NCBI GenBank assembly: GCA_964344775.1
Contig: CAYFOO010000001.1
Coordinates: 13,087 to 77,086 of the forward strand
Source: an uncultured Candidatus Peribacteria bacterium
GTDB taxonomy: Bacteria; Patescibacteriota; Gracilibacteria; UBA4473
Length of the DNA stretch: 64,000 nucleotides
Reading direction: 5' to 3'
A program made the translations under genes and the position numbers. The notes under the pieces were generated by a model. That model was given only the letters and a program-made list of their open reading frames with translations. It ran no database searches and was not told the DNA's origin. Positions 10,528 to 58,592 of this stretch are shown piece by piece (within the stretch, counting starts at the first letter, position 1; each line of letters opens with the position of its first letter).

Positions 10528-12759
10528 CCCACGTACAAATTTACCATCACCGGAACAGTTCAGGGCGTCGGATTTCGACCATTTATTCTCCGTGAGGCAA
10601 AAAAAGCAGGGTTGGAAGGATATGTAAAAAATACAGGCATCGGCGTAGAAATCGTGGCCAACGATAAAAATAAAATTGCAAAAATCCTAGAGAATCTACC
10701 CCCTCTGGCCAAGATTGATCAAATTAAGATTCAAGAAATCAAAGATGAAAAATTTAAAGATTTTGTAATTCAAAATTCTTCCCGTACAGACGCCCAATTT
10801 GGGCGTCTCCATAATACAAAAACAAATTTTTCCATCCCCCCCGATATCACCACTTGTGATAAATGCCAAAAAGAATTATTTGATCGGGATGATCGAAGAT
10901 TTCAATATTTTTTCACGAGCTGCACCGACTGCGGTCCCAGATTTTCGATTACAGAGCAATTTCCCTTCGATCGGGAGAATACCACCTTGGAAAAATTCCC
11001 TATGTGCCCAGACTGCGAAAAAGAATACAAAAATCCGGAAGACCGAAGATTCCACGCACAAACTATCGCCTGTGAAAAATGTGGTCCTGTATTGTCCTTG
11101 TACTGTAAAGACACGCCACGGCGTGTCTCCACAGGAAAAAATGCCATAAAAAAAACAATTGATCTTCTCAAATCCGGAGAAATCATCGCCATCAAATCGA
11201 TCGGCGGATTTAGCTTGATCTGCCTGGCCGATGAAAAAACGGTCACAAAATTACGATCCCTCACCCACCGAAAAAACAAGCCTTTTGCCCTGATGGCCAA
11301 AGACATAAATATGATCAAAAATATTGTTCATATTTCTAAGAAAGAACAAGAAATTTTGGAGTCACGAGAGCGGCCAATCGTACTATTGCATCGTAAAGAC
11401 GCCCAAATTGGGCGTCTCAATCACATATCAGAAAACAGCTTCCTCGGATTTTGCCTCCCCTACACTCCCCTGCACCACCTAATTTTTGAGCATCTGGATG
11501 AACCCATCATCTTCACCTCATCCAATCTCCCCGGCATCCCAATTACCACAAAAAAAGAACAACAATTTGTCCCCCATGTCCTGGATTATGACCGGAAGAT
11601 CGCGAACTTTTCGGATGATTCGATCGTAAAAGTAATCGCTGATCATCCCCTCCTCATCCGCCGAAGTCGCGGATTTGTCCCCACAGAAATTCAGGTCCCT
11701 AAAAATTATCAAATATTTGAAGATGATATCCTCGCCGTCGGAGGAGAAATGAAAAACACCTTTTGTCTCAAAAAAGGAAACTCACTACTCCTTTCTCAAC
11801 ACCTAGGAAACACAGCCGGACTCGAGAACTTTGAAAATTTTCGCATCACGCTTGATAAATTTCTGAAATTTACTGGTGCCAAACCAAAGGTAATTCTGTG
11901 CGATAAAAATCCCTCCTTCAATACCCATCAATTTGCTCATGATTTTGCGAAGAAAAATAAGATTCAATGTGTGGAAATTCAACACCACGTGGCACACGTT
12001 TTTTCGACAGCACTCGAACACAATCTGACGAACTTCATCGGAATCGCTGCAGATGGCACCGGCTGGGGAGAGGGTAACAAAGTCTGGGGCGGAGAAGTTT
12101 TTCATAATGATCAGAGAATTGGAAAACTCGAAGATCAAACCCTCATGGGCGGGGACATCGCAAATAAAGAACCAGTCCGGATGCTCATCGGAATTTTATC
12201 CAAATTTTTAGATGAAAAAGAAATCATAAACCTGCTTCCAAATTTTAATGAAAAATTAATTAAAAATTGTATCAAACAAAAGAAAGAAAACTTCAACTGC
12301 ATTGAAAGCTCCAGTTGTGGACGGATCCTTGATTGCATATCTATCCTCCTCGGATTGGCGGATAAAAATGATTACGAAGGGCGATGTGCACAGATGTTAG
12401 AAATAAAAAATGACCTTCCAAAATTTAAAATTAAAAATTTAAAATTAAAAATTAAGGGAAAAGATAATTTAAATATTTTAGAAACTACTCCTCTTTTTCA
12501 ATTTCTCATTGAAAAGCTGGATAAAATCCCAAAAGAAGAGCTCGCACATCTAGCCCAACTCTACCTGGCTGAAGGGCTTCTGAAAATCACCCAAGATCAA
12601 AACCTCCCCATCGTCTGGAGCGGCGGCTGTGCTTACAACTCAATCATAACCAGCTTTTTGATTTCAAAAAATGTACTATTCAACAAAAACATTCCTTCTG
12701 GAGATGGGGGAATTTCTGCCGGACAAATTGCATACTTCCTTTGGAAAAAATTTAACTAA
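10525..12759 (+). CDS. hypF: [NiFe]-hydrogenase maturation carbamoyltransferase HypF
   Basis: Contains an acylphosphatase motif (GTVQGVGFRPF), two CxxC zinc-finger pairs, a YrdC-like block (IAIKSIGGFSL, KNKPFALM) and a Kae1-like C-terminus. The track start (TTG 10612) cuts the acylphosphatase motif. The frame is open from 10501 with no ATG/GTG/TTG, so ATT 10525 is a guess. Confidence 0.85.
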   Translation: MPTYKFTITGTVQGVGFRPFILREAKKAGLEGYVKNTGIGVEIVANDKNKIAKILENLPPLAKIDQIKIQEIKDEKFKDFVIQNSSRTDAQFGRLHNTKTNFSIPPDITTCDKCQKELFDRDDRRFQYFFTSCTDCGPRFSITEQFPFDRENTTLEKFPMCPDCEKEYKNPEDRRFHAQTIACEKCGPVLSLYCKDTPRRVSTGKNAIKKTIDLLKSGEIIAIKSIGGFSLICLADEKTVTKLRSLTHRKNKPFALMAKDINMIKNIVHISKKEQEILESRERPIVLLHRKDAQIGRLNHISENSFLGFCLPYTPLHHLIFEHLDEPIIFTSSNLPGIPITTKKEQQFVPHVLDYDRKIANFSDDSIVKVIADHPLLIRRSRGFVPTEIQVPKNYQIFEDDILAVGGEMKNTFCLKKGNSLLLSQHLGNTAGLENFENFRITLDKFLKFTGAKPKVILCDKNPSFNTHQFAHDFAKKNKIQCVEIQHHVAHVFSTALEHNLTNFIGIAADGTGWGEGNKVWGGEVFHNDQRIGKLEDQTLMGGDIANKEPVRMLIGILSKFLDEKEIINLLPNFNEKLIKNCIKQKKENFNCIESSSCGRILDCISILLGLADKNDYEGRCAQMLEIKNDLPKFKIKNLKLKIKGKDNLNILETTPLFQFLIEKLDKIPKEELAHLAQLYLAEGLLKITQDQNLPIVWSGGCAYNSIITSFLISKNVLFNKNIPSGDGGISAGQIAYFLWKKFN
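10788..10808. repeat. 21-nt palindrome AGACGCCCAATTTGGGCGTCT inside hypF
   Basis: 10+1+10 perfect. Translated as TDAQFGRL. Confidence 0.85.
11109..11128. repeat. 20-nt palindrome AGACACGCCACGGCGTGTCT inside hypF
   Basis: 9-bp arms. Translated as KDTPRRVS. Confidence 0.85.
11397..11417. repeat. 21-nt palindrome AGACGCCCAAATTGGGCGTCT inside hypF
   Basis: Same as 10788..10808 with the central base complemented, i.e. the opposite orientation. Translated as KDAQIGRL. Confidence 0.85.
12424..12458. repeat. heptamer array TTTAAAA TTAAAAA TTTAAAA TTAAAAA TTAAGGG inside hypF
   Basis: Translated as KFKIKNLKLKIKGK. Confidence 0.75.
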
Positions 12760-13275: not shown

Positions 13276-13295
13276 CGTCCCGAGGACTCGGGACG
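13276..13295. repeat. GC hairpin CGTCCCGAG-GA-CTCGGGACG
   Basis: Centre of the S5|L15 spacer. An inverted sibling with a shared flank lies at 54629..54656. Confidence 0.8.
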
Positions 13296-14341: not shown

Positions 14342-14680
14342 TCAAAACTTCAACCCTCCTTCGCGAGCTCCTTCTGCCAAGGCTTTTACTTGGCCATGGT
14401 ATTGATAACCATTTCGATCAAAGGCTACTTCTTCTACTTTTTTGGTCTTTGCCAATTTAGCAATTTCAGTCCCTACTTTTTTTGCTCCTTCGATTCCTGC
14501 TTTTCCTTTTAAGTTTGATGTTCCACAGAGTACTTTCCCAGTGCTGTCATCAACAATCTGAGCATAAATTGCTCGCAGAGAACGAAAAACAATCAGTCTA
14601 TTTCTTTCACTTGCACGAGCCTGTGCATGAGTTCTTCTCGCACGAGCTTGTCTTCTGTTAGCTTTTTCTTGGATATTCAT
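14342..14680 (-). CDS. rplR: 50S ribosomal protein L18
   Basis: 112 aa, typical L18 ([45 protein letters not shown]). Confidence 0.95.
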
Positions 14681-24551: not shown

Positions 24552-27500
24552 TTAATTCGCCAAAAACGCCCCCCGAAACTTCTGATACTCGGTATTCAGC
24601 TCCGCACAGTGATCCCCCGCCATCTCGATGTAGTCAAAACACTGCCTCGTCGGGACATTATGATTTCTCATAAATTGATCTCTCAAAAGCTCTACCGATC
24701 GCTGACTTTCCTCTCCACACCAAGCCCCTACCTCCTCGATGTAACTTTTTCGAAAATCAGCTCTCACCTCTGGACAATGTGCTTCTACAATCTCTTTTCC
24801 CATGAGAAATTTATCAAAAGAAATCCCCATTCCCATAGCCACGGCCAATTTTTTACGATCTTCATCAGACAAATACCGTTGGTTTTTTCGACCAAAATAC
24901 TCGTACTCCTCCAACTCAGAAAAAAGATCTTCCGCTTTTTGAAAATCAGCATTGGGAGAAACTTCCGACCAATTGTCCCACAACACTTTTAATTTAGTCT
25001 TCAAATCTGCCAAAAATAGTTTTAGATTTCGATCACTGCTACACTGTAATATCTGGCCACATTTATTTTCCAGGTTTTCTACCTCCTGAAGCAAAAGCCA
25101 GATCTTTTTTCGGATAGAGAGTTCTCCTCCACCTCTCCGTTCCTCTATTTCCATCCGATCATCGGCCGTGGCGAGAATGCGAAAAAAATATTTCGAAAGT
25201 TCTGTATCCGCCAGCTTGGCTTCCTGGATGATTTCGTATGCACGGATAAAAATTGTATTGACCGATTTGATCTGATCTTCCTGATACTGCACTTTTTCAG
25301 CCGTAGAAAGTGGAGCCACTTCTTTTTCTGGAATTTCTCGTGCTCGACCAAAAACTTGTACGACATAAAACTCCTTCTTTTTATTTTGGGCCAACCCAAT
25401 TCCCACCCGATTCCACTTCGCACTGAGGAGATTTTGTCGATGGGATGCAGAATTTTCTAGTCCGTTCAGAGCGAGCTCCAGAGTGGTCCCGTAGCCCAGA
25501 TTCTCCCCAAATTCGCCAAACATTTCTGCCATTTTGATCCGATCTTTGAAGCTCAACCCCTCCGGAGTGGTATGGGAAATAAATCCTTCATTAGCCATCC
25601 GCTGAGCATAGTGCTGAGCAAATTTGTCCAACTTTGAATCCTTCGCCAGGGGCGATTTCCGATATTTTTTTCGGAGCTGATTGATCCAGTTTCGGATTCC
25701 CGCCGTGGACTCTGAACGAATAAAAGTTTGTTCCCATTTTGCCACCGGTAACACAATATTTTTGTGAAAATACATCCCTCGGTTGAAAAGAATTTCGCCC
25801 TGGTCAGAAACAATCTCAAGTACATACGTGCCATACTTGTGTGGCTTGAGCGAGAAGAAAAATTTATCGCCGTTTTTTTTGATTGGGATCTGTTCTACCG
25901 TGCCTTCGGTAGAAATCAAAAATACATGATCCGGCAGGTTTATCCCACCCTCCAGGACTTTCCCATTCAGATGAACCATGTCCAAATCCTTGAGAAATCG
26001 AGGAAACTGGTGCACAGAAATCGTATCTTCTTCTTTGTCCGGAAACCCCGGAGTGAGAATGAAATTTTTGTACGATACCTGCTGCCAATTGGTGATTTGG
26101 GATTCTAGATTTCCATCCGATGAATCTGCTTGAAAAACATCAATCGCCAGTTTGCGATCCGGACGAAACTGATCAAAAAATTTATACGGAACAGAAATAT
26201 GATTGAGCCCGTATTCAAAAAGTAAAGCGGATTTATGATTTTGAGAAAAAACAATTTTTGTCAGTCGATCTTCTCCTGCTGCCCAGGAGAAAACTACTCG
26301 CGATTCCTCAGGAATCACGTTCACATCCAGATGGGAAACATAATGTGTTTCAGCCGAACGAAATTTTCTATCTCGAGTGAGTGCAGAAACTTTTATTTTC
26401 CCGACACGAGATCGTCGATCATCGTCAAAAACGATGCCCAGATGAAAATTTCCCGGTTCAAAAAAGATAATCGGCACAGAAAAATTTGCTCCAGAAACCG
26501 CACCTTTAAACTGCTCTTGTGCCTTTGTTTCCAAATTTTGAAGAAAAACGATTACTTTTTTTGCCCCAGGATTTTTTACTGTTCCCTCCACTTCAATTAC
26601 CCGTCCCACGATCACTTCACTCGGAACTCCCCGCCTCAGGGTCAGATTGGGAAAAAAATTCTCGGAGATGTAAGCGATAGTTCCTCTGGTAGGCCGGTTG
26701 GGAATAAGCTCTTTTTTTTTACGAGGAATGGGTTTTTTAGCTCGTTTTTTTACGAGTGCTTTTTTGATATCTTCTGTTGGTTCACCAGAACGAGTTCGTT
26801 TGCTGAGAAATTTATCCGCCAAAACATCCGGTACACTTTTTTCTTTGGCTTCTTCTGTCAGACTTGGACGGATCTGTTCTGGGATAGTTGGCTGTTCGTC
26901 CAGATTATCAGAATACACTTCGAAAACGACATCGATCACCCCTCGAGAAGAAGGGGCTAATCTTTCAAAGGCTTTTCGCGAAAGGTCCAAAATTCGATCC
27001 GAATGATACGGTCCACGATCATTTACTCGTACAATCACATAATCTTTGTCGTCATTACTCCACGCAGGATTCCAATTCCACACCTTCAGCTTGGTCCCAA
27101 AAGGAAGAATCCGGTGGGCCGCGGTCATGTCCATCGGATCATAAATCTCTCCATTGGCTGTAGGTCGCCCAGCAAATCCCTGATCGTAGAAACTCGCCGA
27201 TCCCATCCCCGAGTAGGTGTATTTGGACTCGAATCGATTGGTTGATAAAATATGAGCTCGATAAATGTACTCCGCGATGTCTCCTCGAGAGAGGGATTCG
27301 TACGGAGAGAGCTCCGGTTCATCCAGGATTCGAAATTCTTCTGCCGTATCGAAAAATGGAACAAACCAATCCTCAGATTCCGAATCTTCTGTGAAAGGTA
27401 CATCAAAACTCATCACCAGCATCTTGAGAAACTCCGCTCGAGAAACTTGTTTGCCGGGATGGAAGTTGCCATCCGTGAAGCCTTTTACAATTTTATGAGC

Positions 27501-27800
27501 AGCGGCCGTGTGCACATAGTCGGCGAACCAGTCGTTTTTTCGAATGTCGGGGAAAGATACATCAGATCTGGGGTTCACCGGAATATCTGCCGCCAGTAGC
27601 AACATTTTTAGTGCTTCTGCTCGATTTACTTTTTGCCGCGGACGGAAGTACATCTCTCCTTCTTCCTCATATCCGCTCACCACTTCTTTTTCGCTCAAGA
27701 AATCAATCGGATGAAAGTGTGGATGTGTGGTATCCACATCGACAAAACTTGCGAATGAAAAAGCTGGAAAAAAGAGGAATGTAAAAAATAGTCTTTTCAT
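24552..27800 (-). CDS. large secreted multidomain protein: SLH repeats + RlpA-like DPBB + CAP/SCP (YkwD-like) + Cys-containing C-terminal region
   Basis: Signal peptide and SLH repeats (GFTDGNFHPGKQVSRAEFLKML). DPBB block: SFYDQGFAGRPTANGEIYD...VIVRVNDRGPY...ILDLSRKAFERLA. CAP block: HTTPEGLSF...GENLGYG...SHRQNLLSAKWNRVGIG. Confidence 0.7.
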   Translation of the reverse strand: MKRLFFTFLFFPAFSFASFVDVDTTHPHFHPIDFLSEKEVVSGYEEEGEMYFRPRQKVNRAEALKMLLLAADIPVNPRSDVSFPDIRKNDWFADYVHTAAAHKIVKGFTDGNFHPGKQVSRAEFLKMLVMSFDVPFTEDSESEDWFVPFFDTAEEFRILDEPELSPYESLSRGDIAEYIYRAHILSTNRFESKYTYSGMGSASFYDQGFAGRPTANGEIYDPMDMTAAHRILPFGTKLKVWNWNPAWSNDDKDYVIVRVNDRGPYHSDRILDLSRKAFERLAPSSRGVIDVVFEVYSDNLDEQPTIPEQIRPSLTEEAKEKSVPDVLADKFLSKRTRSGEPTEDIKKALVKKRAKKPIPRKKKELIPNRPTRGTIAYISENFFPNLTLRRGVPSEVIVGRVIEVEGTVKNPGAKKVIVFLQNLETKAQEQFKGAVSGANFSVPIIFFEPGNFHLGIVFDDDRRSRVGKIKVSALTRDRKFRSAETHYVSHLDVNVIPEESRVVFSWAAGEDRLTKIVFSQNHKSALLFEYGLNHISVPYKFFDQFRPDRKLAIDVFQADSSDGNLESQITNWQQVSYKNFILTPGFPDKEEDTISVHQFPRFLKDLDMVHLNGKVLEGGINLPDHVFLISTEGTVEQIPIKKNGDKFFFSLKPHKYGTYVLEIVSDQGEILFNRGMYFHKNIVLPVAKWEQTFIRSESTAGIRNWINQLRKKYRKSPLAKDSKLDKFAQHYAQRMANEGFISHTTPEGLSFKDRIKMAEMFGEFGENLGYGTTLELALNGLENSASHRQNLLSAKWNRVGIGLAQNKKKEFYVVQVFGRAREIPEKEVAPLSTAEKVQYQEDQIKSVNTIFIRAYEIIQEAKLADTELSKYFFRILATADDRMEIEERRGGGELSIRKKIWLLLQEVENLENKCGQILQCSSDRNLKLFLADLKTKLKVLWDNWSEVSPNADFQKAEDLFSELEEYEYFGRKNQRYLSDEDRKKLAVAMGMGISFDKFLMGKEIVEAHCPEVRADFRKSYIEEVGAWCGEESQRSVELLRDQFMRNHNVPTRQCFDYIEMAGDHCAELNTEYQKFRGAFLAN

Positions 27801-27880: not shown

Positions 27881-27910
27881 GTTAACCCACCAAATATTTG
27901 GTGGGTTAAC
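27881..27910. repeat. 30-nt perfect palindrome GTTAACCCACCAAATATTTGGTGGGTTAAC
   Basis: 15+15 perfect, in the divergent region between 24552..27800 and tilS. Confidence 0.9.
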
Positions 27911-27964: not shown

Positions 27965-28861
27965 ATGGAACTCGAAAAAATCGTCACTGATTTTCTAAAA
28001 AAAGAACACCTTACCGATAAAAAACTGCTCTGCATGGTTTCCGGTGGTGTGGACTCCGTCGTGCTGTTAAATATTTTGAATAAAATTTTTGATCAAAAAT
28101 CACTTGCCGTCTTTCATCTAGATCATTCCTCACGAAACAATTCTGACAAAGACTTTCAATTTGTACAAAATTTGTGCTCAAAATTTGGTACTAAATTTTA
28201 TGGGGAAAAATTGGATAAAATCCCTCAAAAAGACAAAGAAAATTTTTGGAGAACAGAACGAAAAAGATTGGCTAAAAAGGCCAAAAAAGACTTCGGAGCA
28301 GAAAGAATCCTCACGGCTCACCATGCCACCGATCTCGTAGAAACGATGCTTTTCAGGCTAACAAAAGGGTGCGGCATCGATGGCCTTTCCCCTTTTGAAA
28401 CCAGCACAAAACCTCTGTGGCAAGTCCCAAAATCAGAAATTGAAAAATATGCACGAGAAAACAAACTCAAATGGATCGAGGATCCCTCAAATGAAAATAC
28501 GGACTTCCAACGAAACCTCATCCGGAAAGAAGTACTCCCCCATCTGCGAAAAATCACCCCCAATCTCGAACAGGTTTTTGTCCGAGAAGCAGAAATTTTT
28601 GGAGAAATGGCGGATTTTTTGGATAAATCTGTTGAAACGGTAGGGACAAGTCGCGACTTGTCCCTACCAGATTTTTTAAATCTCCCAAAAATCCTCCAAA
28701 AAGAGTGGCTCCAAAAAATCGCCAAATCTACTCCTAGTGCTTCAGAGATCGAAGACTGTCTCCGTTGGCTCCACGGCAATCCTCCAGGCAAAAGCAAAAA
28801 AGAAATTGGAGGCACAAAACTTCAGATTGTGAATAATAAAATTCAAATTCTCCCCTGTTAA
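27965..28861 (+). CDS. tilS: tRNA(Ile)-lysidine synthase
   Basis: PP-loop CMVSGGVDS and TAHHATDLVET. Carries a 30-nt perfect palindrome in frame (28639..28668). Confidence 0.85.
   Translation: MELEKIVTDFLKKEHLTDKKLLCMVSGGVDSVVLLNILNKIFDQKSLAVFHLDHSSRNNSDKDFQFVQNLCSKFGTKFYGEKLDKIPQKDKENFWRTERKRLAKKAKKDFGAERILTAHHATDLVETMLFRLTKGCGIDGLSPFETSTKPLWQVPKSEIEKYARENKLKWIEDPSNENTDFQRNLIRKEVLPHLRKITPNLEQVFVREAEIFGEMADFLDKSVETVGTSRDLSLPDFLNLPKILQKEWLQKIAKSTPSASEIEDCLRWLHGNPPGKSKKEIGGTKLQIVNNKIQILPC
28639..28668. repeat. 30-nt perfect palindrome GGTAGGGACAAGTCGCGACTTGTCCCTACC inside tilS
   Basis: Translated as VGTSRDLSLP. A sibling lies at 58206..58233. Confidence 0.9.
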
Positions 28862-29026
28862 GGGGAGACTAAGAGGGGTTTTTCCGAAGGAAAATAATCT
28901 TTTGACACTTCAGACAACTTTATTAACTTACCCACACAGCTTTTTCGGCAGCGTTACTGCTCGACCGATGAACGCTACTGATCTTTATTGTTTTCGTTGT
29001 AACCCAAAAAGGGAGGGCTTAGCCCA

Positions 29027-30202
29027 ATGAACGCGATTGTTCCCGAAAAACCAAAGAAAGGTCCGGCATGTCCGGATTTTTCCTCCGGCCCCTGTGCGAA
29101 ACGTCCCGGATGGACTGTGAAGGTCCTCGAGAACGCACTTACCGGTCGATCCCACCGCTCCAAACCGGGCAAGGCCAAGCTGGCCGAAGCCATCGACCTG
29201 ACCCGGGAAGTCCTCGGCATTCCCGACGATTACCGTATCGGAATCGTCCCAGCATCGGATACCGGTGCGGTCGAAATGGCCCTGTGGTCTCTGCTCGGTG
29301 CCCGCGGCATCGACATGCTGGCCTGGGAGAGTTTCGGCAAGGGCTGGGTGACCGACGTGGCCAAACAGCTCAAGCTCGGCGTCAACATTCTAGACGCCGA
29401 TTACGGTAAGTTACCCGACCTCAAAATGGTGAACTTCGCCAACGACGTGGTGTTCACCTGGAACGGTACTACCTCGGGTGTCCGAGTTCCCAACGGCAAC
29501 TGGATCCCCGCCGACCGCCAGGGTCTCACCATCTGCGACGCCACTTCAGCCGCATTTGCTATGGACCTTCCTTGGAACCTACTAGACGTCACTACCTGGT
29601 CCTGGCAGAAGTGTCTGGGCGGCGAAGGAGCTCACGGCATGATTGTCTTGAGTCCTCGTGCGGTTAAGAGGCTCGAAACATTTACGCCTTCTAACCGTCC
29701 TCTGCCCAAGATCTTCCGTCTGACCAAGGGCGGTAATCTGATCGATGGCATCTTCCGGGGCGAAACTATCAACACGCCTTCCATGATCGCCGTGGAGGAC
29801 GCTCTGGATGGCCTGAAATGGGCACAGTCCATTGGCCTGCAAGGGCTTATCAACCGCTCCGAAGACAACCTTACCGTTGTCGACGAGTGGGTGGAAGTCA
29901 GCGATTGGGCGGCTTTCCTGGCGGAAGTTCCTGAAACCATCTCGAATACCTCGGTCTGTCTGCAGATCAAGGACGAGTGGTTCCTGGGGCTGAACGGCGA
30001 CCAACAGGCCGTCTTCGCCAAACGGATGGTGGCTCTGCTCGACGCAGAAGGTGTCGCCTTCGATATCGGTGCCTACCGGGACGCCCCGGCCGGACTCCGT
30101 ATCTGGTGCGGTCCCACCGTCGAAATCGACGATGTGATCGTGCTGATGCCCTGGCTCGATTGGGCCTTCGCCACCGCCAAGGCGGAATTCGAAACCGCCT
30201 GA
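29027..30202 (+). CDS. serC: phosphoserine aminotransferase (long, proteobacterial-type SerC)
   Basis: [51 protein letters not shown] and [15 protein letters not shown]-rich codon usage unlike all neighbours. AGGGAGGG lies before the ATG, and a stem-loop terminator follows the gene. Confidence 0.85.
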
Positions 30203-30269
30203 CGTCCCAACGAAATCAAGAAAATTCCGTGCTCCCGGAGACAATCTTCCTCCGGCAGCCAACTCTCAA

Positions 30270-30296
30270 GCGGTCCCTCCGGGACCGTTTTCCTTT
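30270..30296 (+). terminator. intrinsic terminator of serC
   Basis: CGGTCCC-TCC-GGGACCG followed by TTTTCCTTT. Like the gene, it is GC-rich. Confidence 0.7.
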
Positions 30297-30316
30297 ATTC
30301 CAAAAAACCCTTGTAT

Positions 30317-30383
30317 GTCATCCTGGCCTGCCCAGGATCCTGACAGTTGTGCACAAGCGACCAGATTCCGGGCAAGCCGGAAT
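30317..30383. repeat. pair of GC hairpins (ATCCTGG-CCTGC-CCAGGAT; ATTCCGG-GCAAG-CCGGAAT) of the GTCAYCC...GAATGAC type
   Basis: Stems were counted directly. They lie at the right edge of the serC island. Confidence 0.7.
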
Positions 30384-30400
30384 GACAAATTTTTCTACTA

Positions 30401-30435
30401 TTTGTTGTTCTTTGTTATTTGTTATTTGTTCTCTG
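30401..30435. repeat. heptamer array TTTGTTG TTCTTTG TTATTTG TTATTTG TTCTCTG
   Basis: Just downstream of the PBP2 stop. Confidence 0.75.
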
Positions 30436-30439
30436 ACAA

Positions 30440-32626
30440 TTACCGATCCGGCGGAATCCCAAAATGTGAAAACAAAAACTTCGCCACTCGACGAAAAGTA
30501 ATCGCCGCGGTCTCAGATCCCCACTGAGAATATCGCGGATGGTCGTATTTCACCAGCACGACAAATTTGGGCTCTTTGATCGGACCAAAACCAGCAAAAC
30601 TGGTGATTGTCGTCCCCTCACCAACCAGTGCCTTCCCTTTTTTATACGTCTGAGAGGTTCCTGTTTTTCCCATTACCGAATACCCCCACACCCGTGCTCC
30701 ACGAGCCACGCCGTTGTCCACGGAGTTCAAGAGCATGGATTTGATTGTCTGATACGTCTTATCAGAAATCACCCGACGCACTCGCTCAGGCTTGAATGTT
30801 TCGGCTTCGCCTCCTGGATAACGAATCTCTTCGACAATCATGGGTTTCATCAGGTATCCACCATTGGCCAGCGAGGTAAAAGCCATCGCCATCTGAAGTG
30901 GCGTAGCCGTAATCCCCTGCCCAAACCCGTAGGTGATCAACTCTGATTCAGCCCATTCACGCCAGGGTTTAATTTTTCCATCTTCTTCTCCGTCGAGCTC
31001 AATATCCGTGTACTGTGCAAAACCAAAGTTTTTGAAATAGTCATATAGCACCTGCCTTCCAATCTTTCGGGTAATGAATGCGATTCCAGTATTCAAAGAT
31101 CGGTTGATCACCTCGATCATAGTCGTCAGTCCAGCGTAAATTTGATCCGCGTTTCGGATTTTGAATTCATCTACCTCCACCGGTCCTGCGTCGTCAAATG
31201 TTGTCTGGGGCATCACCTCATCAGAATTCAAAGCGGCCGACATCGTAAAGGCCTTCATCACGGATCCTGGTTCGTAGGTATCGGAAACAATTTTGTTTCG
31301 AAATACAGCGGGTCCCCAGGAGTTGAAATATCGGTAGTATCGACCATTTTCTATGATGGTGGGGATTCGCTGATTGAAAAGCTCATCCTCCCGGTCAGCC
31401 TCTGCCTGCTCTGGCGATATTTCGTAGCGGAGGAAAGCTTTTCCAAATTCATTGGGATCAAAGGACGGGGCATGGGTCATGGCGAGCACTTTCCCGGTCT
31501 CTGGTTCAATCACGACGATCTGACCGAAGTCCGCACTGTAATTCATCAGATCCTCTTCGAGGATTTTTTCTACAGCATCTTGGATCACCCGATCGATGGT
31601 GAGGACGATATCGGCTCCATCCTGTGCATGAGCAATCCCCAGGCTTTTGCTCAGGATTCGTTGCCCTCGCGTATTGGTCGCTCCGAAAATATATCCCTCT
31701 TTTCCCTTGAGCAGATGATCAAAGTATCCCTCAATCCCATACTGCCCTCCTCCAGACGAATCCACAAACCCGAGAAGCTGGGCGGCCAGTGTTTTTTCTG
31801 GATAGTATCGCCAATATTCATCCGTCAGCTGGACCCCTCGAAGCATTTCTTTGTAGTTTGGATCTCGCTTCATTTCCATAATTTTTTCTGAAACTTCTGG
31901 CACAATCTTATGCGTAATTTCAAGGTATCGCCGTGGTTTCCGATCGATCCATTTGGAAATTTTTCTTTCTTCGATATTGAGGAGTGGAGCTAATTTCTCA
32001 GCTGTTTCTTCGAGAGCAATGATGCGAGTGGGATCTGCCAAAACAGCATTCTCTTCAACCCAGATACCCGGCAAATGCATCTCAGTTATTTTTTCGGCTC
32101 TTTCCTGGGAAATATCGGTCAGCAGTAAAACTCTTTTTCGCTCAATGGAAGAAATCTTTTTTCGCAGCTCCGCCGCATAAGCCATGATCGCCGCTCTCTC
32201 GGTAGTGGTCCAAGTGGATGGTTCGGTTTTTATGTCACATCCCTCAATCTTCTCACAATGAGCATTGATCAGAATCGGTGCCAAAATCTCCGCTACCACC
32301 CCCGGATCTGATTTTTCTTGCTGATTGAGTGGTAATTTGTGATTGTACTTCGGATAACTCAAAATCAAAGGATCCACAAAAAGCATCTTCAGGGTGTTGT
32401 TGGTGGCCACTGGAGTCACTTCCTCCGTCAGTCGATTTTTTCGGACCAGGATCTTTCCACGACGGGCCGGCAAAACGGATTTCTTCTCGTGCTGAGCCTT
32501 CGCTTCTGCATAAAACTCCTGATGCCGAATCACCTGCAGCTCAAAAAGCCGCAATCCAAATATCACAAAAAGGGCCAAAAAACACCATTTGAGGATTCGG
32601 ATGCGGGATTCAAAAGTTACGAGCAT
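30440..32626 (-). CDS. penicillin-binding protein 2 / FtsI-type peptidoglycan D,D-transpeptidase
   Basis: Start moved to MLVTFESRIRILKWCF (TM anchor). Transpeptidase motifs: GSVMKAF (SxxK), RSLNTG (SxN) and MGKTGTSQ (KTG). Confidence 0.85.
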   Translation of the reverse strand: MLVTFESRIRILKWCFLALFVIFGLRLFELQVIRHQEFYAEAKAQHEKKSVLPARRGKILVRKNRLTEEVTPVATNNTLKMLFVDPLILSYPKYNHKLPLNQQEKSDPGVVAEILAPILINAHCEKIEGCDIKTEPSTWTTTERAAIMAYAAELRKKISSIERKRVLLLTDISQERAEKITEMHLPGIWVEENAVLADPTRIIALEETAEKLAPLLNIEERKISKWIDRKPRRYLEITHKIVPEVSEKIMEMKRDPNYKEMLRGVQLTDEYWRYYPEKTLAAQLLGFVDSSGGGQYGIEGYFDHLLKGKEGYIFGATNTRGQRILSKSLGIAHAQDGADIVLTIDRVIQDAVEKILEEDLMNYSADFGQIVVIEPETGKVLAMTHAPSFDPNEFGKAFLRYEISPEQAEADREDELFNQRIPTIIENGRYYRYFNSWGPAVFRNKIVSDTYEPGSVMKAFTMSAALNSDEVMPQTTFDDAGPVEVDEFKIRNADQIYAGLTTMIEVINRSLNTGIAFITRKIGRQVLYDYFKNFGFAQYTDIELDGEEDGKIKPWREWAESELITYGFGQGITATPLQMAMAFTSLANGGYLMKPMIVEEIRYPGGEAETFKPERVRRVISDKTYQTIKSMLLNSVDNGVARGARVWGYSVMGKTGTSQTYKKGKALVGEGTTITSFAGFGPIKEPKFVVLVKYDHPRYSQWGSETAAITFRRVAKFLFSHFGIPPDR

Positions 32627-33139: not shown

Positions 33140-33174
33140 CCCCCGGCCTTCGGCCGGGGGACACTTTTTCTTTT
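33140..33174 (+). terminator. intrinsic terminator of 32786..33130
   Basis: CCCCCGGCC-TTC-GGCCGGGGG followed by ACACTTTTTCTTTT. Confidence 0.7.
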
Positions 33175-33232: not shown

Positions 33233-33264
33233 GGCGAGGTTGGGAAACCTCGCCTACGTTTTTT
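33233..33264 (+). terminator. hairpin GGCGAGGTT-GGGA-AACCTCGCC plus T6 (second terminator-like element; member of a repeat pair)
   Basis: 9-bp stem, then TACGTTTTTT. The same 22-mer occurs inverted at 429..450. Confidence 0.5.
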
Positions 33265-54638: not shown

Positions 54639-54656
54639 GTCCCGAGGACTCGGGAC
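54639..54656. repeat. GC hairpin GTCCCGAG-GA-CTCGGGAC
   Basis: Sibling of 13276..13295, with shared flank CCCGRCCTTC in the opposite orientation. Confidence 0.8.
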
Positions 54657-57265: not shown

Positions 57266-57293
57266 GAATTTTGAATTTTGAATTTTGAATTTT
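57266..57293. repeat. (GAATTTT)x4 exact
   Basis: Lies between the first and second genes of the secreted-protein operon. Confidence 0.9.
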
Positions 57294-58132
57294 TAATCAT
57301 TGGTGGTGATGAGTTCTTCATAATCCTCTCCGGCATGTTGGTCGCAGAGTTCTGAGGCGGCGTAGTTAAATTTGTCCGGGAATTTGTAGATGGCTTTTCG
57401 GAGGATGGTGCTCATGGCATGTGTTTTTTTGAGAGCCTCCCAGATGGTGGTGAGCCACATGTGAAATCGGTAATTTTGTTCCCATTTTTGATAACGATAG
57501 AGAGTTTCGAAGAGGGCTTTTTTTGATTTTTCTAGTTCAGCTCTGTGCTTTCCTTTATTGCCTCGGTCTGCTTCAAAAAAGCCCACGTTAGTTTTTTCTT
57601 CGAATTGTTTTTCTGCATGGGATTCATCCAGGATCTTCCATTCGATGTATTCTTGGTAGGCACAAAACTCGTTCATCACGGTTTCTGTGACATGACAGGC
57701 AGAATAAAATTTATCAATCGTGGGATTATAGTCTTCTGTGGGGCACATGCTCTCGTATCCGTTGTTGATCTGAGATTTTATCGTCTCCTGCATGTTTTCA
57801 GAGGGTGTGCATTCATCGTTTCTTTCGATGTCTTCGAAGTTGGCCGTGCTGGGAATTTCTTTCCAGATACGGGTAAAGTCCGCATTCATATGATTGATCG
57901 ATTGGGCCATGGCGTCATTGAAGAGGCAGTTGATCTTTTTTTGATATTTTTCCTGTGCTTGAACAAGTGGCTCATCTAGTGAATAACTCAAAGAAGAGTG
58001 GCACAGCTGCTTCTGCGTCATTTCTGCGAAGTTGTCTCGGAGCCCACTGTCTAAAGAAAAAGCTGCAGGAACTTGAAAGATGAATGTTCCGAGCAAAAAT
58101 ATGGAAATGACCCTTTTTTTGTTTTTGTTCAC
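57293..58132 (-). CDS. secreted hypothetical protein (first gene of operon)
   Basis: Signal peptide ...FIFQVPAAFS. 7 Cys. No recognisable domain. Confidence 0.6.
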   Translation of the reverse strand: MNKNKKRVISIFLLGTFIFQVPAAFSLDSGLRDNFAEMTQKQLCHSSLSYSLDEPLVQAQEKYQKKINCLFNDAMAQSINHMNADFTRIWKEIPSTANFEDIERNDECTPSENMQETIKSQINNGYESMCPTEDYNPTIDKFYSACHVTETVMNEFCAYQEYIEWKILDESHAEKQFEEKTNVGFFEADRGNKGKHRAELEKSKKALFETLYRYQKWEQNYRFHMWLTTIWEALKKTHAMSTILRKAIYKFPDKFNYAASELCDQHAGEDYEELITTND

Positions 58133-58205
58133 GAGGATATTTTAGAGGATCAATTTGGGTTTTTCAATGAACAATTAAATAATCGAAAACAAAAAATTAA
58201 AAATC

Positions 58206-58233
58206 GTAGGGACGTGTCGCGACACGTCCCTAC
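58206..58233. repeat. 28-nt perfect palindrome GTAGGGACGTGTCGCGACACGTCCCTAC
   Basis: Intergenic sibling of the tilS palindrome. It differs by GT/AC versus AA/TT, changed on both arms. Confidence 0.9.
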
Positions 58234-58256
58234 TGGGGGATTGTTTTTTAATTTTT

Positions 58257-58284
58257 TTGACAACTTGTGAGAAATCCTTACATT
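58257..58284 (+). promoter_or_regulatory. candidate promoter TTGACA-16-TACATT for rpmA
   Basis: Hexamers were counted directly, 30 nt before the ATG at 58314. Confidence 0.45.
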
Positions 58285-58313: not shown

Positions 58314-58592
58314 ATGGCTCACAAAAAAGCAGGTGGTTCCAGTAAAAACGGTCGAGACTCCAACGCCAAAAGACGTGGAGTGAAGAGATTTGGTGGACAC
58401 AAGGTTGAAGCCGGAGAAATCCTCGTACGTCAAAAAGGAACCAAGCTTCGTCCTGGAGAAAATGTAGGAATGGGGAAAGATTTTACGCTTTTTGCAGAAA
58501 TTGCTGGGAAAGTAACCTTTTCAGAAAAAGCAATTCGCCGGTTTGATGGACGGAGATACCCGAAACGGTTTGTGAGTGTGATGCCAGCATAG
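58314..58592 (+). CDS. rpmA: 50S ribosomal protein L27
   Basis: [24 protein letters not shown]... No L21 gene upstream. Confidence 0.95.

Follow-up and report, generated by a model that had tools for sequence, protein, structure and literature searches.

The 64-kb window analysed here is a stretch of 64,000 nucleotides from contig CAYFOO010000001.1 of an uncultured Candidatus Peribacteria bacterium, a member of the Gracilibacteria within the candidate phyla radiation (CPR). It contains two short, perfect palindromes, one in frame within tilS, the gene for a tRNA lysidine synthetase, and the other upstream of rpmA, which encodes ribosomal protein L27. We describe these two elements and their relatives in other genomes, and argue that they are very probably repetitive extragenic palindromes (REPs) of the double-foot GTAG type, which carry GTAG at the 5′ foot of a hairpin and its mirror image CTAC at the 3′ foot. 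The features concerned are listed here.

27965-28861, plus strand: tilS, tRNA lysidine(34) synthetase, 298 aa; TIGR02432 at 145 bits (cut-off 93.6); PF01171 over residues 21-189
28639-28668, no strand: probable double-foot GTAG REP, variant AAGT/ACTT (the tilS copy); core 28-mer at 28640-28667 plus one extra complementary G/C pair
58191-58257, no strand: AT-rich 13-nt perfect inverted repeat around the rpmA-side element, AAAAAATTAAAAA at 58191-58203 and TTTTTAATTTTTT at 58245-58257
58206-58233, no strand: probable double-foot GTAG REP, variant GTGT/ACAC (the rpmA-side copy); intergenic
58314-58592, plus strand: rpmA, ribosomal protein L27, downstream of the second copy; PF01016, E 6.6e-35

Two perfect palindromes at tilS and rpmA

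The tilS copy, GGTAGGGACAAGTCGCGACTTGTCCCTACC, is perfect over 30 nt with arms of 15+15 nt, and the rpmA-side copy, GTAGGGACGTGTCGCGACACGTCCCTAC, is perfect over 28 nt with arms of 14+14 nt. The sole differences between them are at positions 9-10 (AA in the tilS copy, GT in the other) and at the mirrored positions 19-20 (TT and AC, respectively). The original prediction, made from the sequence alone, had described a 30-nt perfect palindrome in frame in tilS, translated as VGTSRDLSLP, with a sibling upstream of rpmA in which an AA/GT change is compensated by TT/AC; the coordinates and frame of the first copy and the perfect pairing of both were verified here. Each copy carries a 5′ GTAG foot (consensus GT[AG]G) on a stable hairpin, starts with the stem base GTAGGGAC, and ends in the mirror foot CTAC (consensus C[TC]AC). 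A search with the pattern GTAGGGACNNGTCGCGACNNGTCCCTAC, allowing up to three mismatches, returned exactly these two sites in the window, 29.5 kb apart, against a mean of 0.00 in 100 shuffles. They are also the longest two GC-rich perfect hairpins of the window. When folded as single-stranded DNA, the tilS copy is predicted at -14.0 kcal/mol (z -6.4) and the rpmA-side copy at -13.4 kcal/mol (z -5.5), both relative to shuffles. Further GTAGGGAC octamers, at 14469 and 41205, each lack a partner arm and were set aside as chance matches. A scan of the whole window at Rfam gathering thresholds matched no family, and ARAGORN found no tRNA or tmRNA in the window, so the hairpins are unrelated to tRNA. 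Three separate assemblies (L001-L003) from two sequencing runs contain the tilS copy in identical form, so it is no assembly artefact. These observations confirm that both palindromes are real and non-random.

The open reading frame (ORF) at 27965-28861 reads ...SVETVGTSRDLSLPDFL... across the palindrome, which codes for TilS residues 226-235, a variable linker directly after the PP-loop domain. The best named TilS homologues come from Candidatus Gracilibacteria, and the flanks up to the palindrome are those of an ordinary Gracilibacteria-like tilS. When 37 TilS sequences are aligned, the ten palindrome-coded residues fall in alignable linker columns with zero length gain, and Leu234, coded by the CTA of the 3′ foot, is near-invariant (at least 90% conserved). 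Between the conserved SVE and (D/E)F motifs the window protein has 11 residues, against 15 in the closest orthologue (68% identity) and 12 in the next (60%), so that the closest orthologue is in fact four residues longer in the linker. A search of both orthologous tilS genes for a degraded palindrome found neither palindrome nor remnant, and the motif GT[AG]GGG[AG]C was likewise absent from both genes. The absence from orthologues, together with the similar segment length, indicates a lineage-specific palindrome that stands in for a linker segment and not a plain insertion. On this point the original prediction, which took the tilS palindrome to be an insertion, does not agree with the alignment.

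The rpmA-side copy lies in a 181-nt divergent spacer between a minus-strand ORF (57293-58132) and rpmA on the plus strand. A promoter for rpmA is predicted at 58257-58284 (TTGACA-16-TACATT), 3′ of the palindrome, and the copy as a whole sits between two predicted divergent promoters, upstream of both and outside both predicted transcripts. An effect on rpmA mRNA is therefore unlikely. The palindrome is placed off-centre inside a larger local hairpin, and a 78-nt fold that includes both stems is predicted at -20.2 kcal/mol.

Around tilS, two neighbouring features were also recorded. Directly downstream is a gene for a serC_2-type phosphoserine transaminase (29027-30202, in the region 29000-31000; NF002841, 652 bits), and this gene has a GC content of ~58% compared to the window mean of 41%, which suggests that serC, beside the palindrome-bearing tilS, was recently acquired horizontally. 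On the other side, the divergent spacer between tilS and a minus-strand gene with SLH, DPBB and CAP domains (24552-27800) holds a 30-nt palindrome, GTTAACCCACCAAATATTTGGTGGGTTAAC, at 27881-27910. It has 13-nt perfect arms and no GTAG foot, and could be an operator or some other repeat.

A covarying hairpin family in more than ten phyla

Relatives of the two palindromes were sought in one genome per GTDB species (596 Gb) using the pattern GTAGGGAC-N4-CGCG-N4-GTCCCTAC. This has 20 fixed bases, for which our own arithmetic gives a chance expectation of ~0.5 matches in the whole set. The scan found at least 119 genome loci in more than ten bacterial phyla, and there were a further 103 metagenome contigs and 6 viral contigs. 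All genome figures given below (119 loci, 127 copies and their variants) refer to the matches listed, the true total being 119 loci or more. The loci derive from Patescibacteria, Bacteroidota, Chloroflexota, Nitrospinota, Ignavibacteria, Rhodothermales, Gemmatimonadales, Gammaproteobacteria, Spirochaetia, Latescibacterota, Fibrobacter and Ruminococcus, and the carriers include the cultured strains Hanamia caeni, Longimonas halophila and Oscillochloris sp. Different loci have unrelated flanks. The commonest variant, GTAGGGACAGGTCGCGACCTGTCCCTAC, accounts for 66 copies. That of tilS occurs at five other loci in the genome set, with the identical 28-mer in other phyla, and that of the rpmA side has no other copy among the genome matches listed but was found in two unrelated metagenome contigs (L153 and L155). 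We sought kin of the window organism in the 103 metagenome matches and found none; a 43-nt match in L233 was rejected as a relative, as it consists only of the palindrome plus a low-complexity A/T flank.

The pattern leaves four stem pairs free, over which we see 31 variants. Perfect variants, 21 in number, make up 116 of the 127 copies (>90%), and the ten imperfect variants comprise nine singletons and one that was seen twice. All four free pairs are changed on both sides (53 cells), with a covariation score of 0.351 compared to 0.086 in shuffles; none of 500 shuffles reached the observed value, and pairing drops to ~40% in register-shifted controls. An independent metagenome scan, which allowed 16 combinations at two pairs (4 complementary, 12 not), gave 103 loci with 108 copies, and 105 of these copies are complementary. 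Compensated covariation on this scale excludes neutral drift, and requires either a constraint on the hairpin or cruciform, or generation of the element from one arm, by copy-back or by collapse of an inverted dimer. The original prediction had already argued from the two window copies that compensatory arms point beyond neutral drift, and had proposed a covariation test in which frequent imperfect arms would count against it. Its argument holds across genomes and metagenomes alike, with no such frequency of imperfect arms in either set.

The same 28-mer is found in unrelated contexts, and in both of its open frames, across phyla. Of the element's three frames, two are open (VGT.R...L and RD..R..PT) and the third contains TAG; with two open frames, the element is able to persist in variable surface linkers of proteins. 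Besides tilS, genes that host it in frame encode a Ser/Thr kinase (L009), YchF (L044), a SpoIIE-like phosphatase (L079) and a KdtA-like protein (L087). No fixed dinucleotide marks the target site, where the one trend is a weak preference for T or C at -1 (67%). We rejected the idea of a constant position at the apex of a longer host hairpin: only ~16% of copies (20/127, counting palindromic flank extensions of at least 3 nt) have it, against ~2 copies expected, and the rpmA-side copy is one of these with a longer local inverted repeat.

Several observations on the wider family stand apart from this argument. Six predicted viral contigs (IMG/VR; L126-L131) bear the 28-mer, with no gene for its transposase partner (see below) in the stretch covered. 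These contigs may carry the element from one phylum to another, or may be cellular DNA that was misclassified. Half-REP units, GTAGGGACAGGTCGCGAC, occur in tandem beside a full palindrome in L119 (4380-4480), L069 (250-320), L071, L081 and L101, and the transposase gene of L119 contains three in-frame 27-nt repeats (VGTGRDAAS x3) ahead of VGTGRDLSL. This hints at slippage at the REP, or at repeated rounds of partial copying there. In several high-GC metagenome-assembled genomes, GCCGGAATGACGAA or its complement TTCGTCATTCCGGC lies within ~40 nt of the GTAG REP (L015, L042, L049, L052, L056, L085, L089, L090, L121 and L122), which suggests a second repeat family co-localising with the first in the manner of BIME-like clusters. 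Finally, palindromes with a GTAGGGGC stem base adjoin the GTAGGGAC element in L077 (137-204, GTAGGGGCGGGTTTTAAACCCGCCCCTAC), L011, L053 and L080, and a single genome can thus harbour several double-foot variants.

Association with a REP-associated tyrosine transposase

When all ORFs of the 119 genome loci were clustered, one family was found to overlap the palindrome itself. Its proteins are ~170-210 aa long and share the motifs PNH[IFV]HGI..., WQRSFHDHIIR and YIxxNPxxW. The first and second of these motifs enclose the palindrome, which is in frame and reads VGTGRDLSL in one frame and RDRSRPVPT in the other; as the two frames yield unrelated peptides, it is the DNA that is conserved and not the peptide. 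Family members match NCBIfam NF047646 (REP-associated tyrosine transposase, RAYT) with 63.5 and 79.7 bits, against a cut-off of 80, as well as Pfam Y1_Tnp. The RAYT genes at each locus were counted by tblastn with queries from which the palindrome peptide had been cut out. A RAYT gene with the motifs NH[IFV]H, WQ and YIxNNP is present in 13 of the 119 genome loci listed, with the REP inside the gene in 11, and a RAYT gene lies beside or around the REP in 9 of the 103 metagenome loci.

A protein search returned 1220 homologues at E <=1e-10, many of them annotated "REP element-mobilizing transposase RayT". Among the best 120 of these 1220, 102 have all three motifs and 42 contain the REP peptide (VGTGRDLSL or RDRSRPVPT), with the tilS variant VGTSRDLSL in two of the 42. 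Several homologues belong to Magasanikbacteria and other Patescibacteria, and RAYTs of this kind (subclass 2.4, defined below) occur with the same REP in these CPR bacteria. The clearest arrangement is that of L236 (27% GC), a textbook REPtron. Its RAYT gene (213-731) has the exact tilS 28-mer both upstream, at 159 (54 nt from the gene), and inside, at 483, with a one-base variant at 773, 42 nt downstream. The REP and the RAYT gene are thus physically associated in other genomes, which lends substance to the idea, raised in the original prediction, of a hairpin tied to a REP-associated tyrosine transposase.

RAYT subclass 2.4 was defined by Quentin, Siguier, Chandler and Fichant (2018, BMC Genomics 19:475, PMC6006769), whose passages on this subclass give the motifs NH[IFV]H / WQ / YIxNNP, equate it with RAYT group 4 of Bertels et al. 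2017, and report it as frequent in Cyanobacteria and Bacteroidetes, with a scattered occurrence elsewhere among the phyla. The same passages assign two types of REP to the subclass, one of them with a double foot (5′ GT[AG]G and 3′ C[TC]AC) and often in frame in genes. Supplementary file 2 of that paper includes subclass 2.4 REPs such as GTAGGGACAGAC...GTCTGTCC and GTAGGGACGCAC...GTGCGTCC. The REPs catalogued for the subclass have G-C pairs at the base of the stem, and start either with GTAGGGAC, as both window copies do, or with GTAGGGGC. As far as those passages describe them, double-foot REPs resemble the window elements in their GTAG/CTAC feet on a long GC-rich hairpin, in the GTAGGGAC base, in their patchy distribution over phyla and in low copy number. 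The window elements differ in their host, one of the Gracilibacteria, in having no RAYT gene within 64 kb, and in that the tilS copy replaces a linker segment. The passages on this subclass in PMC6006769 do not report one exact 28-mer common to more than ten phyla. Bertels et al. 2017 found group 4 RAYTs with modestly repeated 16-mers (14 occurrences), which fits the low copy number in the window.

Identity of the elements and alternative explanations

The anatomy of the family is a 5′ GTAG foot, a GGAC stem base, four variable complementary pairs and a CGCG apex, followed by the mirror image down to CTAC. Judged by sequence, the two window elements have every hallmark of the double-foot REP family. 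Their sequence identity to that family, the covariation of its arms, its spread over phyla and its association with RAYT 2.4 genes are all direct observations, and we consider it very probable that both palindromes are copies of a double-foot GTAG REP, the DNA partner of a Y1/HUH TnpA-REP (RAYT) of subclass 2.4. Double-foot GTAG REPs are already known as a kind; what is new is a member from the Gracilibacteria.

By analogy with better-studied relatives, a RAYT would mobilise these elements, and one may be present or active in the genome from which the window derives. As in E. coli TnpA-REP and the TnpA of IS200/IS605, the enzyme would recognise the hairpin with its GTAG guide on single-stranded DNA, and would cut and rejoin single strands, seeding copies elsewhere. 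The element is its own reverse complement, so either strand, when single-stranded, folds to the same hairpin with a 5′ GTAG, and both strands would offer the enzyme the same substrate. Only copies with pairing arms would stay substrates; alternatively, each element would be born from two inverted copies of one arm. Either route would explain why the common variants are perfect and the imperfect ones nearly all singletons. Copies would survive where they are harmless, and that in tilS would have replaced a linker stretch of about its own length, itself supplying Leu234.

Several known systems can be set beside the window elements. The REP/BIME elements of E. coli, with TnpA-REP (4ER8, PMC3479197; PMC8266576), share the GTAG at the foot of a GC-rich hairpin and the same kind of partner, a Y1/HUH enzyme encoded in single copy, whose substrate for cleavage is single-stranded REP DNA. 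However, E. coli REPs are imperfect, bulged, single-footed and essentially extragenic, and are present in hundreds of copies, whereas the window elements are perfect, strand-symmetric and few, with one of them intragenic. Like REPINs (Bertels and Rainey 2011, PMC3116915), in which two inverted REP arms form a hairpin, the window elements keep their arms complementary, but REPINs are abundant, ~100 nt long and have a spacer between two complete REPs, while the window elements have no spacer and a length of 28 nt. TnpA, a Y1/HUH enzyme from the same superfamily, likewise recognises the subterminal hairpins of IS200/IS605 on single-stranded DNA; these hairpins are imperfect, though, and mark the two ends of an insertion sequence carrying tnpA (and tnpB), unlike free-standing 28-nt units.

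Rickettsia palindromic elements (RPEs) are ~100-150 bp in size. At 28-30 nt, and with no added length in the TilS alignment, the window elements do not fit this type and the assignment was rejected. There is a likeness nonetheless, as RPEs and intragenic GTAG- and CGTC-tagged REPs both lie in frame in functional genes, many of them nucleic-acid-handling, where they add short peptide segments in tolerant loops (PMC3733652). For the tagged REPs, Di Nocera et al. 2013 (PMC3733652) describe copies in frame within genes, many of which serve nucleic-acid metabolism. RPE-1 is longer and has no known RAYT, and the reported cases are net insertions, in contrast to the tilS case with no gain in length.

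Several points weigh against identification as a RAYT-mobilised REP. There is no net insertion in tilS, where simple cut-and-paste or copy-in predicts otherwise. The original prediction had proposed to look for a transposase elsewhere in the genome; a search of the window with RAYT 2.4 proteins gave no RAYT gene: the best tblastn hit there has an E-value of 0.2 and is the palindrome itself, and none of the best 120 RAYT homologues is named as Gracilibacteria. Two copies per 64 kb is far below classical REP densities. In the double-foot form the GTAG is base-paired, whereas it is a single-stranded guide in the E. coli REP complex, so recognition may differ. Cleavage of single-stranded REP DNA by a RAYT has been demonstrated for E. 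coli TnpA-REP alone, which belongs to another subclass (2.2). We found no report of cleavage or mobilisation of this particular REP in the literature searched, and full-text searches for the exact sequence and the encoded peptides gave nothing relevant. For the geometry of the tilS copy, the most economical proposal is an insertion followed by a compensating deletion, selected for linker length.

In a different account, the two copies are inert imports, patches of REP sequence brought by recombination with foreign DNA (from host or prey uptake, or phage) into a genome that has no RAYT of its own to mobilise them. The lack of a RAYT gene in the window fits this, as do a tilS copy that replaces a segment and adds no length, the identical 28-mer in many phyla and six viral contigs, and the neighbouring serC (29027-30202), which at 58% GC against a 41% background suggests horizontal acquisition close by. 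Nevertheless, the tilS flanks are ordinary right up to the palindrome edge, which would reduce the imported patch to only ~30 nt, and the two copies are different variants that are both perfect. Magasanikbacteria and other Patescibacteria, as CPR bacteria, encode RAYT 2.4 with this REP, and the absence of RAYT covers a 64-kb window with at least 1.1 Mb of the genome lying outside it. We therefore regard inert import as unlikely. A slightly slimmer chance attaches to a more radical picture, of a strand-symmetric mini-element that moves between phyla, stays at low copy in a reduced CPR genome lacking RAYT, and enters genes by equal-length replacement. If true, this would be a single-strand "patch exchange" mode of REP spread, RAYT- or repair-mediated, that is so far undescribed.

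Explanations that dispense with a mobile element fare less well. The palindromes might act mainly at the level of RNA or transcription, as terminators, insulators or mRNA stabilisers in the way of E. coli REPs, and be retained for that role and not as substrates of a transposase. Their stems are very stable, Di Nocera et al. (PMC3733652) argue that many REPs are transcribed, and on the rpmA side the minus strand of the copy scores as a hairpin of terminator-like form with a T-rich run after it. That pattern fits the minus strand only, however, at a site upstream of both divergent predicted promoters and outside both predicted transcripts, and an intrinsic terminator was rejected for this copy. 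It was rejected for the tilS copy as well, which is followed inside the ORF by CAGATTTTTTAAATC, with no T-run and 190 nt ahead of the stop codon; termination there would truncate an essential enzyme. The recurrence of the 28-mer in unrelated contexts and both open frames across phyla, and the lack of any Rfam match, also speak against a role in RNA, which we consider very improbable. It is harder still to credit that the palindromes are operators of a dimeric host protein, or restriction or recombination sites of the Xer or telomere-resolvase type, despite a 28-bp perfect dyad, the position of one copy in a divergent promoter region, and a TCGCGA centre that is a restriction-type hexamer. The centre differs by variant (TCGCGA, GCGCGC or CCGCGG), and the inner 4+4 positions vary freely and yet remain complementary, for which a half-site reading has no need. 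One copy is in a coding region, the palindrome is absent from two orthologous tilS genes, and the only conserved neighbouring gene is RAYT.

Elsewhere in the window there are other palindromic repeats, and GC-rich hairpins number 21 in total compared to 1-8 in block shuffles. A hypF-type carbamoyltransferase gene (Acylphosphatase, zf-HYPF, Sua5_yciO_yrdC and HypF_C domains) contains three GC-rich palindromes in frame.

10788-10808, in frame in hypF: palindrome AGACGCCCAATTTGGGCGTCT, coding TDAQFGRL
11109-11128, in frame in hypF: palindrome AGACACGCCACGGCGTGTCT, coding KDTPRRVS
11397-11417, in frame in hypF: palindrome AGACGCCCAAATTGGGCGTCT, coding KDAQIGRL

Each has GACG...CGTC feet, with covariation between the arms (GCCC/GGGC vs CACGCC/GGCGTG). 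In appearance they form a second family akin to REPs, and may belong to the CGTC-tagged type described by Di Nocera et al. 2013 (PMC3733652). GTCCCGAGGACTCGGGAC is a third dispersed repeat, again small and palindromic, present twice in opposite orientations (13276-13295 and 54639-54656), both copies apparently intergenic and sharing a flank of ~40 nt (…CCGnnGTCCCGAGnnCTCGGGACGAAGGyCGGGC…). A hairpin of 22-24 nt, GGCGAGGTT(GGGA/TCCC)AACCTCG(C/T)C, also occurs twice, inverted, at 429-450 and 33233-33254, with a shared part of only 24 nt; near each lies another GC-rich hairpin (CCCCCTTTAACAAAAGGGGG and CCCCCGGCCTTCGGCCGGGGG; 343-362 and 33140-33160). On gene calling, reading UGA as sense (table 25 or 4) over the whole window raises the number of ORFs of at least 200 aa from 44 to 88 and nearly doubles their summed length. 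A UGA-sense code fits Gracilibacteria, so table-11 ORF lists split many genes in the window.

With identification as a double-foot GTAG REP, an odd in-frame palindrome in an essential tRNA-modification gene gains a name and a likely enzyme partner, and this type of REP is extended to the Gracilibacteria. For annotation, it means that VGTGRDLSL, VGTSRDLSL and RDRSRPVPT in unrelated proteins are to be read as REP-encoded linkers and not as conserved motifs. REP families are usually held to be lineage-specific, co-evolving with a vertically inherited RAYT. The two points of note are the cross-phylum sharing of one exact 28-mer and a tilS copy with no net gain in length. The latter bears on how such REP copies arise, and the former suggests that the subclass 2.4 system has spread horizontally.

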